Positions 4,725 to 21,575 of a DNA stretch of 32,195 nt are shown here, piece after piece. A model generated the notes under the pieces. That model had not been told where the DNA came from and made no database searches. It saw nothing but the letters and a program-made list of their open reading frames with translations. Origin of the DNA: a virus; the IMG/VR virus record IMGVR_UViG_3300045988_095223. One strand, given 5' to 3'. How positions within the stretch are numbered: the first letter of the stretch is position 1; each line of letters starts with the position of its first letter. The position numbers and the translations under genes were made by a program.

Positions 4725-5580
4725 CATTTGTATTCAACACAGGTCGTTAATCTGTGTTCGTTCTTTTACGAACTGCTTTATGTTTCCATAAAGATTAGAC
4801 TATATCATTATCCTTTTTCAAGGATACTCTCCATTTCCACTCACTTGAGTGTACTCCCTTTCGGGATAGTCGTTGAACCTTCATATTGTTTCCATATATA
4901 ACCATAAGCGGTTTTTCTTTTTCCTCTTATACATCTACCTATATTGCCACTGATATTTTTATCTTTGCCTAAATGTATCAATGCTTCCCTACAAGTATCG
5001 TATATTTTTATTAAATTGCCTTGTAAATCATATTGTGCTATTCCATATTTAACTTCGTTAGTTAAATTATTGTTTATTGCATGTATTCTATTTTCTTTAT
5101 GTGTTACCCACTCTAAATTATTTAATTTATTATTTTTTTTATTACCATCTATATGATTTATTTCTTCTTTTTGTTCTTGACTAGAAAAAGCCAGCATTAC
5201 TAATCTGTGAACTTTTGGACATTTATATAAAGAATTAGTTCCTCTTAAATCATAATATAAATATCCGCTACTATCAACCGATGGTTTCATAAATCTTTTT
5301 CTACATGGAGTGTATAATCTGCCATCATCATAAATAAAATATCCTTTGCAATTTTCAAATCCGTTTACTTCGCTTAATTCTTTTTTCATATTACCACCAA
5401 ATTAATTATACTACAATTGGCATAATTTGTCAACTTAGTGATGGAAACAATATGCTTGGTTGCTGATTGCCCATTGTACATACTTTAGATTTTTACACTT
5501 TGGTACTAAAGCCTTTAGGGTGTTCCAGCAATTAAAAGAGTTTTCTTATACTATTGCTAATATAAGGAGCAATTTTGTTT
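4725..5580 (-). mobile_element. Group I self-splicing intron (about 856 nt) in the endolysin gene, carrying an HNH homing endonuclease ORF
   Basis: Exon 1 ends in U (..GCG AGU|) and the intron ends in G (..CAAAUG|GAU). GCUC, 10 nt into the intron, can pair with exon GAGU to give the U.G wobble of P1. Conserved core strands are AACGACUAU (4874..4866) and GAUAUAGUCUAAUC (4806..4793), where GACUAU/AUAGUC forms a P7-like pairing. Confidence 0.85.
4841..5389 (-). CDS. Intron-encoded HNH homing endonuclease (HNH_3-like)
   Basis: HRLVMLAFSS...INHIDGNKKNNKLNNLEWVTHKENRIHA. It lies wholly inside the endolysin interruption, and its 3' end overlaps the ribozyme core strand AACGACUAU. Confidence 0.8.
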   Translation of the reverse strand: MKKELSEVNGFENCKGYFIYDDGRLYTPCRKRFMKPSVDSSGYLYYDLRGTNSLYKCPKVHRLVMLAFSSQEQKEEINHIDGNKKNNKLNNLEWVTHKENRIHAINNNLTNEVKYGIAQYDLQGNLIKIYDTCREALIHLGKDKNISGNIGRCIRGKRKTAYGYIWKQYEGSTTIPKGSTLK

Positions 5581-10279: not shown

Positions 10280-11492
10280 TTATGCTCCTCCCATTCCATA
10301 ATTATAATCGTTTTTAGAACCACCACTAAATGTTTTAATATTATTAACCATTTGTCCTAATGGGTCTTGTTCCATATTATTATTTACTACTACATTAACT
10401 TGTGGGCTTAAATTAGTGCTTGAACTTCCATATAGGCTAGGAGATAAACTAAACATATCATCAAACATTCCTCCGACTGTTGAATTAACTTGTCCTTTCA
10501 TATCTTCCATACCTTTTTCTAAACCAACCATATTCATCTTACCTATCCAAGCAAACTCTGTTGATGGACTATGTACTCCAAATATTCCTCTGATTTTTTT
10601 CATTATTGAATTACCTATACCTGCTATCTTGTCAAGTACCCAATCTTTAGCAGACTTAATACCATTCCAAAGACCTTGTATTAAGTTTTTACCGCAATCC
10701 CACATCATTCTAGGCATTCCTTTAAAATATTCAATTACATCAACAACAATTTCTTGTACTCTTGCTAGCAATATTGGAATAGCATTTAATATACCAGCAA
10801 TTAAGCCACCTAATAATTTGAAACCAGCCTCTATGAATAAAGGTAAATTATCAATTAAGATAGGTATAGTGCTAATAATAGCATCTATTATAACTGGTAT
10901 CAATGTAGGTAATTGCTCTGCTAATGCTTGAATTATCATAACTAGCCCTTGAATTAATGAAGTAAGTATAACTGGTAGCATATTTGCCAATTCTTGAATT
11001 ATAGTAGGCAACATACCCATTAATATTTGAATAATACCAGGTAATGCTTGAACTAGCCCCATTATTAATGTTGATGTTCCTTGTATTAGTGCTGGTAATA
11101 CCGCTTGAAGTAAAGGACCAATTAAAGGTATTAAATTATTCAATAAAGTAGTTAAGCCTGTTATTATTTGAGGTGCCATTTTTATTATAGCATTTGATAT
11201 ATTTGTTCCTGCGGTAGTAAAGGTACTTATTACTTCTTCAATTCCACCCGCACCACTTAAGAAATTACTAAATGCTGACTTCGCACTATTTATTGAACCG
11301 CTTATAGTAGTAGAGGCTTCTTTCGCTGTCGTTCCTGTTACATCTAATTCTCCTTGAATTACATGAATAGCATTAAACACATCATTTAAATTAGAAATGT
11401 CGTAATGTACTCCCGATATTTTTTCAGCATCTGATAGTAATCTTTCCATTTCTGTTTTTGTTCCGCCATAGCCAAGTTTCAAATTATCTAAC
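10280..11492 (-). CDS. Tape measure protein exon 2
   Basis: Begins (M)LDNLKLGYGGTKTEMERLLSDAEKISG.., the second half of the conserved TMP motif. It is followed by long hydrophobic/helical repeats (LIPLIGPLLQAVLPALIQG...). Confidence 0.85.
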
Positions 11493-11879
11493 CATTTACA
11501 CCCCTAGTTTCCTAGTACTTTAACACTTATTTAAAAGTGGGATTAGACTATATCTTTATCTCAAACTTCCAATCTTTTTTATTTCCTTTTTTATAATATC
11601 TTCCATATTCAATATTGCAAGTTAGATATTATATATTTGAGATAGTATGCACTTCCAATATCGTATCAATAGATATTGTACTGAGTAACGAACTCATAGT
11701 CGTTTGACCTTCCTATTTCTAGGCTTGGCACTGGATAACCATATCTTTTGGACTTAGGCTTCCCCAGTTAGCAAGATTATCTAAATAAGTCATTTCCTCC
11801 TTATATTTTAATCTCACACCCTTGATAAGGTTCACATACACTTACTTAATTATTACTAATTAAGCAGACATTAATTTTT
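11493..11879 (-). mobile_element. Group I self-splicing intron (387 nt, no full-length ORF) in the tape measure gene
   Basis: Exon 1 ends ..UAU ACG AU| (U) and the intron ends ..GUAAAUG| (G). Splicing yields ACG AUG UUA GAU = T M L D, and 482 + 1213 nt = 1695 nt, in frame. It has the same core strands as the endolysin intron: AACGACUAU (11704..11696) and GAUAUAGUCUAAUC (11554..11541). Confidence 0.85.
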
Positions 11880-12361
11880 ATCGTATAATTCTGCTTAGCG
11901 AAACCTTGATAAGCGTTTTGAATATTCTCAATGGCAGTGCCGAATTTATTTGAGTTGTCAGCCATATCTTGAATAGCCATGTCGCCGACTTTGGCTGCTT
12001 CCGCAGTATCTCCGCCTAGGCTTTGCAACAAACTAGCACTAAATGAAGTTATTTGCTCCATATATTTATTAGCATCTATTCCTGCTGTCATATAAGCCTT
12101 TTTAGAGTTTTCTATAACTGTATCGGCACTATCTTTGAAAAGTGTTTCAACACCACCGATATTCTGCTCTAAATCAGCAACACCTTGCAAGGCATCTTTG
12201 CCAAGCCCTAATAAAGAACTACCTACTTTTTCAATAGCACTAGACATTAAGTTACCAATAGCAACAGTACTCGCTTTCAATTTACCAGCGACACCATTAG
12301 TCTTTTTTTCTAGGTCTTTATCATCTCCTTTAAACTTGAAGATGACTTCTCCTCCATTCAT
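11880..12361 (-). CDS. Tape measure protein exon 1
   Basis: ..NIQNAYQGFAKQNYT is the first half of the conserved TMP motif AYQGFAKQNYTMLDNLKLGYGG. The ORF-track tail IKINVCLISNN is intron read-through. Confidence 0.85.
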
Positions 12362-12377
12362 TTATTCCACCTCCTTA

Positions 12378-12414
12378 TTATAAAATAAAGGGCTGGGCTT
12401 TTAACCCAACCCTT
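12378..12414 (-). terminator. Strong stem-loop / intrinsic terminator between the major tail protein and tape measure genes
   Basis: Minus strand: AAGGGTTGGG-ttaaaag-CCCAGCCCTT (10 bp including one G.U) followed by tattttat. Confidence 0.6.
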
Positions 12415-21104: not shown

Positions 21105-21575
21105 TTCTGACACCTCCTTTTTCTTTTTAGTGTTATTAAACACTACACTAATAATATGTCTAGTTTTCCAAAGTAGTTAGCCTGTTAGAAATATAGTGCC
21201 ATAATGGCGAACCTAACTACACTTCCATATTATCAGTGTACTGCTTAATAGATACTGTACCAATGATATATACTATTCATAGTGGAACTATGGACTTCAA
21301 TCTATATCATCAGTACACTACCTACCAGCAGTGCTTATTGTCTATAAAGATGACTTCTACATCAATTTCTTGATTTACTCCATTTTGGAACACATTTATA
21401 GACTACTAGTATTTATAAGCACCATAGAATAGATAAGGACTATGTTTTCCCATTGTTCTATTGATTTATATAGTCAACCTCATAGAACAGGTTATGATAA
21501 TTATCTACTCTATGCTACTTATAAAGGTAACATGCAAGGAAATTGTAAAACACTTTTTCCACTGCATTAATTATA
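21105..21575 (-). other. 470-nt ORF-free, comparatively GC-rich, hairpin- and repeat-dense region between DUF1064/terS and terL (structured RNA and/or packaging site)
   Basis: No ORF on either strand. There is a nested inverted repeat (AGTGTACTG at 21235..21243 with CAGTACACT at 21311..21319). The motif ATAGAA(C/T)A occurs at 21424..21431 and 21482..21489, and inverted at 21454..21461. Confidence 0.5.

Follow-up and report, generated by a model that had tools for sequence, protein, structure and literature searches.

A predicted group I intron lacking an endonuclease gene interrupts the most conserved block of a phage tape measure gene

The window analysed here, that is, the whole 32,195-nt stretch of the virus record IMGVR_UViG_3300045988_095223, carries a tape measure protein (TMP) gene that is divided by an insert of 387 nt, which we predict to be a group I intron. 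The TMP exons, the intron and all intron features lie on the minus strand. Exon 1 (12361..11880, 482 nt) begins with the ATG at 12361 and has U at 11880 as its final base; the intron (11879..11493) ends with the omega-G at 11493 and is devoid of a homing-endonuclease open reading frame (ORF); and exon 2 (11492..10280, 1213 nt with the stop codon) starts with G at 11492. Conventional ORFs break at this point: the upstream ORF (12361..11846) reads ..NAYQGFAKQNYT and then runs into the tail IKINVCLISNN and a stop codon, and the downstream ORF (11482..10280) has a TTG start and reads M-KLGYGGTKTEMERLL... The 3' end of exon 1 is ..UAUACGAU (11880), that of the insert ..GUAAAUG (11493), and the 5' end of exon 2 is GUUAGAUAAU (11492). 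Joining of the exons gives 482 + 1213 = 1695 nt, which encode 564 aa with the junction ..QNYT-M-LDNLKLGYGG... The ORF ends and starts, the 11880/11492 junction and the in-frame arithmetic proposed in the initial annotation are thus exact. Its statement that the 387 nt hold no long ORF is likewise correct: all three frames contain stops, the longest ATG-initiated ORF has 24 aa and a single GTG-initiated one has 40 aa. The region is AT-rich (30% GC).

An intron-less allele, of the kind that the initial annotation had proposed for comparison, is present in L003, a 32,232-bp metagenome contig carrying the P0001 protein. This contig is collinear with the window from position 21270 to position 1, with an identity of ~ 95% that extends over ~ 15 kb, and shows two large gaps relative to it, one corresponding exactly to 11879..11493 and the other to ~ 856 nt in the endolysin gene. 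The insertion site of L003 reads ..TATACCATGTTAGAT.., and the spliced window sequence aligns with it without a single gap. In the 13 nt flanking the junction on each side, the sole difference is a threonine codon, ACG in the window and ACC in L003.

The next question is whether the restored product is a TMP and where in this protein the junction falls. PHROG 6900, 58, 3981 and 991 match the spliced protein with E-values of 1e-46 to 6e-69, and the tape-measure profiles cover residues 10-534, i.e., they extend across the junction; a Pfam search of the spliced protein matched no family. In tblastn searches with the TMP, annotated TMPs were matched in 366 phage records, and large ORFs of 496 and 642 aa lie directly downstream of the gene, as in a tail module. 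The spliced 564-aa product shows 95-99% identity, at 100% coverage, to more than 40 uninterrupted protein clusters, and GFAKQNYTMLDNLKLGY is present in one piece in 101 of the 120 best homologues. When 54 full-length homologues were compared (53-71% identity), the best-conserved 16-aa windows of the whole protein were found to start at residues 150-158, with the junction, at M161, in the middle of this block. The initial annotation had placed the intron inside the most conserved TMP motif, and the alignment agrees.

The splice sites have the features expected of group I introns: exon 1 ends with U, the intron ends with G, and P1 and P10 can both be formed by one internal guide sequence, 5'-UAAUGUC-3' (11873..11867). 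In P1, the GUC of the guide pairs with the exon GAU (G-C, A-U and a U.G wobble at 11880), and U10 pairs with the first intron base; in P10, the UAAU of the guide can pair with GUUA, the first four bases of exon 2. The UGUC of the guide is invariant in all 18 aligned introns (see below). On the exon side, position -3 (11882) is G in 28 of 28 intron-bearing alleles and C, T or A in 11 of 11 intron-less ones, so that the threonine codon preceding the splice site is ACG in the former and ACC, ACT or ACA in the latter. Such a distribution fits the requirement of P1 (the G pairs with C13), co-conversion during homing, or both. Another candidate P1 guide, GUGUAUGUG (11841..11833), was rejected: it offers no pairing with the splice-site U and corresponds to the 5' strand of P3.

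For the structural comparison, same-site introns were gathered with a pattern spanning the 3' junction, which yielded 29 viral and 5 genome contigs; with Lactococcus phage 38502, Streptococcus phage Str-PAP-1 and contig L006 added, there were 28 distinct same-site introns, all flanked by ..TAYACGAU upstream and GUURGAYAA downstream. Eighteen of them were aligned with their long P8 loops trimmed, and the structure was drawn from the window sequence. Standard pairs are formed in 95.0% of the 1583 cells of this alignment, compared with 36-41% after a shift of the 3' partners by 1-3 columns, and 42 of the 93 pairs show compensatory change on both sides. None of 500 shuffles matched the observed paired cells, compensatory pairs or covariation score. 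Compensatory changes are found in P2, P3, X, Y, P4, P5, P5a, P6, P6a, P7.1, P7.2, P8 and P9.1, and P1, P7 (GACUAU/AUAGUC) and P9.0 are invariant. Most of the drawn helices, including X and Y, are also recovered by the minimum free energy (MFE) fold of the single sequence; the predicted folding energy of the insert is -85.3 kcal/mol (z = -3.15), and none of 100 shuffled sequences was as stable.

In order from the 5' end, the drawn structure contains the P2 hairpin (11845..11864; CUUAAUUA-GUAA-UAAUUAAG with a GNRA loop, five of eight pairs compensatory) and the P3 5' strand (11833..11839; GUAUGUG), whose partner lies at 11645..11651 and which is paired in 100% of the cells, with four of seven pairs compensatory. 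Two hairpins, X (11831..11818) and Y (11817..11771, inner stem 11804..11785), stand between this strand and J3/4 (11770..11767; UAAC), with compensatory change in one of five and six of nine pairs, respectively. The P4-P5-P5a-P6-P6a domain (11707..11768) is recovered by the RF00028 alignment, the drawn structure, covariation and the MFE fold alike. It is followed by the P7 5' strand (11696..11701; GACUAU) within the conserved R element CAAACGACUAU and by P7.1 and P7.2 (11656..11695), the former formed by GAGU/ACUC (11695..11683; 2/4 pairs compensatory) and the latter by CAAUAUC/GAUAUUG (11678..11656; 5/7). The P3 3' strand (11645..11651; UGCAUAC) abuts P8, as expected of P3. P8 itself (11557..11644; UAUCUCAAA / UUUGAGAUA) has compensatory change in six of nine pairs and encloses a 70-nt loop consisting of the remains of an endonuclease cassette. 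The P7 3' strand (11546..11551; AUAGUC) lies in the S element AAGAUAUAGUC, and P9.0, P9 and P9.1 (11501..11541; CCC/GGG, ACUU/AAGU and CUAG-GAAA-CUAG, the last with 3/4 pairs compensatory) complete the intron. Since the extra stems P7.1 and P7.2 are present, the modelled structure would be of the IA2 architecture.

Sequence similarity points in the same direction. The core strands CAAACGACTA (11706; also given as CAAACGACUA) and GATATAGTC (11554; also given as GAUAUAGUC) are present in the insert and have a second occurrence in the window, at 4876 and 4806 within the endolysin insert, as the initial annotation had reported. The last 66 nt of the intron, comprising J8/7, the P7 3' strand, P9, P9.1 and the omega-G, share 91% identity with annotated introns of Staphylococcus Twort-like phages at their 3' ends, and the matches stop exactly at 11493. 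In a megablast search of the window against the phage collection, no close relative was found, and only intron cores were matched. Taken together, the intron-less allele, the homologues at this site, the covariation of the structure and the alignment to the whole RF00028 model uphold the proposed group I identity, the 11880/11492 junction, the lack of a functional ORF and the position within the most conserved TMP block.

The absence of an ORF is explained by comparison with full-length relatives of 833-899 nt, which carry a 160-184-aa HNH ORF in the P8 loop; in these, the end of the HNH ORF overlaps with the 3' strands of P8 and P7. The closest one for our purposes is the 842-nt intron of L140, a contig of the window's own sub-lineage, whose 160-aa ORF contains the Pfam domains NUMOD4 and HNH_3. 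In alignment, the window intron equals the L140 intron minus one 455-nt deletion, with the scar between 11611 and 11610. The deletion took the ribosome-binding site and ~ 140 codons, and the NUMOD4-HNH remnant (11548..11610) comprises the last 20 codons and the stop (EYGRYYKKGNKKDWKFEIKI followed by the stop codon), so the window intron encodes no functional homing endonuclease. The window copy thus derives from an 842-nt mobile intron with a NUMOD4-HNH endonuclease in the P8 loop. Independent deletions are present in L006 (388 nt) and in a 313-316-nt class (e.g., L136, 314 nt), both with P8 intact, and P8 is also intact in a separate 283-nt intron of another sub-lineage. That P8 is retained in all ORF-deleted introns is what one would expect of a ribozyme still required once the endonuclease has been lost. 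Because the ribosome-binding site and ~ 140 codons are missing, we infer for its current mobility that the intron can still splice and cannot home alone; it would spread only by recombination or with an endonuclease supplied by full-length copies in co-infecting relatives.

Several observations weigh against a functional intron and have to be set beside this evidence. RF00028 aligns 11839..11523 to the full model (positions 1-253) with 36.0 bits (E = 1.5e-7 in a search of 581 nt), which does not reach the curated gathering score of 50 bits, and Rfam scans of the whole window, both at the gathering threshold and at E <= 1, missed the intron, which was matched only when a short stretch was searched. 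The covariance-model check suggested in the initial annotation would have come out negative at the curated threshold. The shortfall is due to the long P8 loop and to the placement by Rfam of P3' and P8 on the wrong segments; the cut-off is exceeded by L134, a homologue of 283 nt at the same site, with 52.9 bits. The Rfam version of these elements, with P3' as GGAAGAU (11598..11592) and P8 in the A-rich leftover, was rejected, as L006 lacks GGAAGAU and the UAUCUCAAA/UUUGAGAUA P8 covaries. Next, the exon pairing in P1 comprises three bases only; the Azoarcus intron likewise uses three exon bases in P1. Folding could be slower than in the tidier 314-nt derivatives owing to the 70 nt of AU-rich sequence left in the P8 loop. 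With X and Y intervening, the P3 5' strand that covaries is displaced 62 nt upstream from the usual P3 position; in group I introns, J3/4 normally follows this strand without any insertion. At the canonical position, a short P3 of 5 bp (CUU-G-CU and the invariant GGAAG) is paired in 94% of cells, with no possibility of covariation; in 5 of the 18 sequences it is interrupted, at a column showing covariation within Y instead. Both the displaced and the canonical P3 can be drawn, so the topology of the core appears not fully settled, which leaves the main conclusion unaffected. Finally, all the evidence comes from DNA, from which splicing is predicted. With these points considered, it is very likely that the insert is a functional group I intron whose predicted splicing restores the 564-aa TMP.

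Could the intron be dead, with the TMP being produced in the absence of RNA splicing as a 171-aa N-terminal piece and a second piece of ~ 400 aa started within the gene at a TTG or a comparable codon? In the window as in its relatives, gene prediction indeed yields two ORFs, and GenBank annotates phage 38502 in this way; moreover, exon-2-only protein clusters (P0058-P0063, P0065 and P0070) contain up to 196 member sequences, the endonuclease has already gone from the window copy, and its RF00028 score is below threshold. However, 42 compensatory changes keep the helices paired, and three independent ORF deletions preserve P8 exactly, which would be unexpected in a decaying insert. The break also interrupts the protein where it is most conserved, and the -3 G is fixed in all intron carriers. 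Exon 2, for its part, has no in-frame ATG near its start and no obvious ribosome-binding site upstream, and the AUG at 11495..11493 is out of frame and followed by UAA. We therefore consider production of the TMP as two pieces very improbable. That the 387 nt are an assembly artefact or another kind of insertion (an IS or MITE, a group II intron, an intein or a translational bypass) is hardly credible: the window is indeed a single sequence and the region AT-rich, but near-identical inserts at the same base in many independent contigs argue against an artefact, the motifs and structure of a group I core are present in the insert, stops in each frame rule out an intein, the precise in-frame junction needs neither terminal inverted repeats nor a target duplication, and 387 nt far exceeds the 50-nt hop of T4 gene 60, the only well-studied ribosomal hop.

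For a functional group I intron, the following course of events is proposed. A late transcript would carry exon 1, the intron and exon 2, and ribosomes arriving from exon 1 would halt at the in-frame UAA (11848..11846; intron nt 32-34), which lies within P2, upstream of P3 and the catalytic core. The RNA would fold into P1-P9, with the guide holding the end of exon 1 (GAU) in P1, and free guanosine bound in P7 would attack after U11880. The terminal G11493 would then take the guanosine site, P10 (UAAU/GUUA) would align exon 2, and ligation would give ..ACG AUG UUA.., i.e., T-M-L, allowing the 564-aa TMP to be made. We infer these steps, as well as the chemistry and efficiency of splicing, from canonical group I chemistry.

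Another important question is how the intron is distributed among related phages. A lineage set was defined as 25 contigs with a TMP of at least 84% nucleotide identity, in which three insertion sites were recognized: site A (between D and N, 77 nt upstream), site B (that of the window, between T-M and L) and site C (between KLG and YGG, 22 nt downstream). Six contigs have no introns, five have an intron at site B only and two at site C only, two carry introns at A and C, five at B and C and four at all three sites; one contig (L007), which starts at site A, was left unclassed. The three sites thus lie within 100 nt and, where occupied together, leave exons of 77 nt and 22 nt (L006 3362-3981, L004 2224-3979, L169 and L177). 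Removal of the inserts gives an intact in-frame TMP in all checked lineage contigs with one to three introns except L179, an exception attributed to the failure of the crude removal script at the 22-nt micro-exon. At the base where the window intron is inserted, near-identical inserts of 313-316, 387-388 or 842-843 nt are found in many contigs that are independent of one another and derive from different samples. The related contigs come from human-gut metagenomes, and one belongs to a 'Bacilli bacterium' metagenome-assembled genome.

Site B is also occupied outside this lineage, in Lactococcus phage 38502, Streptococcus phage Str-PAP-1 and contigs assigned to Ileibacterium valens and Companilactobacillus nodensis, where full-length HNH-bearing introns lie at the identical codon position. 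This distribution indicates that the intron family has moved among several Firmicute groups, targeting the conserved block. Site C is occupied in Streptococcus phage MissG1, in which a non-coding RNA is annotated at this place. The conserved N-terminal block of Firmicute siphophage TMPs may be an intron hot spot at D/N, T-M/L and G/Y, with a 22-nt micro-exon in some human-gut phages. The ORF-less copies may be kept as a protection of the site against the endonucleases of competing phages. In Str-PAP-1 (L002), we also noted a further TMP intron at 1321-2294 with a GIY-YIG-type ORF, located after ..NKMG, at a distance of 59 nt from the site-B intron downstream; in GenBank, this region is annotated as separate CDSs only.

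Of 122 other phage introns with the P6-P7 core, among the matches listed, only 3 possess the X motif, and two of these three are the present intron. The X/Y core layout and the three-site hot spot are possibly undescribed features; that both hold up as such when taken jointly is a tentative proposition and rather unlikely. If the layout is true, the P3-P8 and P4-P6 domains would be joined via a multi-helix junction and not by the usual three-nucleotide linker.

A few other features of the window deserve mention. A second group I intron of 856 nt (4725..5580, minus strand) lies in the endolysin (Amidase_2) gene; exon 1 ends with ..GCGAGU (5581), the intron ends with ..ACAAAUG (4725), and the spliced product reads WHASDGNG, as in the intron-less L003. 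It contains an intact 182-aa HNH ORF (4841..5389, minus strand; HNH_3/NUMOD1) that runs into the P7 5' strand, and its match to RF00028 is partial (30.5 bits). The 9-mer UUAGAUAAU occurs twice on the minus strand, at the start of exon 2 (11483..11491) and inside the TMP intron just before the Y 3' strand (11782..11790); this repeat, absent from 38502 and Str-PAP-1, is probably a chance occurrence in AT-rich sequence. A strong terminator-like hairpin (12388..12414, minus strand; 12 bp and a T-run) is located 27 nt upstream of the TMP start codon, between a 157-aa upstream ORF and the TMP gene. No frameshifted tail-chaperone ORF pair was evident between this ORF and the TMP gene.

The initial annotation had taken introns in tape measure genes to be not commonly described, and here it needs correction: they have been published in Bacillus cereus-group prophages and in Lactobacillus phage JCL1032. 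The implied rarity is wrong, and ORF-deletion derivatives are known too. Tourasse & Kolsto 2008 (PMC2504315) describe three group I introns in the TMP of the B. cereus-group prophages (TMP-IVS1, TMP-IVS2 and TMP-IVS3). Like the window intron, they are group I introns of a phage TMP, of subgroup IA2 (IVS1/2) or IA1 (IVS3), with several sites per gene; some lack a complete endonuclease gene, their targets are conserved sequences, and their cores resemble Staphylococcus and Bacillus phage introns. Unlike the window gene, their host TMP is different and much larger (>1200 aa), and the window family is set apart by the NUMOD4-HNH ORF in P8 and the two extra hairpins after the P3 5' strand. For JCL1032, a Lactobacillus delbrueckii phage, one intron in the TMP gene is listed in Table 3 of PMC2504315, and its introns are reported as self-splicing, with experimental demonstration, in the title of Riipinen & Alatossava 2004 (cited in PMC6669764); as in the window, a siphophage of Firmicutes carries a group I intron in one of its late genes related to the tail.

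Comparable allele series and intron families are also known from other genes. In the lysin gene of S. thermophilus phages, a full-length intron, three deletion derivatives and intron-less alleles were described (Foley et al. 2000, as cited in PMC3952083), which resembles the window lineage with its endonuclease-bearing, ORF-less and intron-less alleles, as does the clustering of exon differences beside the insertion site noted in PMC3952083; the host gene is a lysin and not a TMP, and the intron family is different. The Staphylococcus Twort-like IA2 introns, among them that of the Romulus/Remus recA-like gene, share the 3' end of the window intron described above, and Twort orf142, with three introns, provides a case of several introns per gene, like the relatives L006, L169 and L177. 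Unlike this 3' end, the 5' two-thirds of the window intron have no detectable nucleotide similarity to them, and the host genes and ORF position differ.

The closest annotated counterparts are phages 38502 (KX160204) and Str-PAP-1 (KP208803), which share with the window the identical insertion point (..TAYACGAU before and GUURGAUAA.. after it), the intron family (74-81% core identity) and the P1/P10 guide, and differ in the length of the intron (859-864 nt) and its intact 163-aa HNH ORF. Both are annotated with two TMP CDSs and an endonuclease (one HNH gene in 38502, two genes in Str-PAP-1), not with an intron, and no mention of an intron in 38502 or Str-PAP-1 was found in our literature search. 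The literature on Moonbeam, Str01/Str03, Krappator X27 and cluster J mycobacteriophages mentions introns, none of them in a TMP.

The finding leaves the current understanding of group I introns unchanged. For the annotation of these phages, its consequence is practical: since gene callers split the TMP in the window, 38502 and Str-PAP-1, the TMP length and the tail-length estimates derived from it are wrong unless the exons are joined, and Rfam at its default threshold misses the window intron. For the phages themselves, the production of an essential structural protein would depend on RNA catalysis. The lineage represents a natural series of empty sites, HNH-bearing introns, three ORF deletions and one to three introns within 100 nt, which could serve to study how introns home and decay and how phages compete with one another in the human gut.

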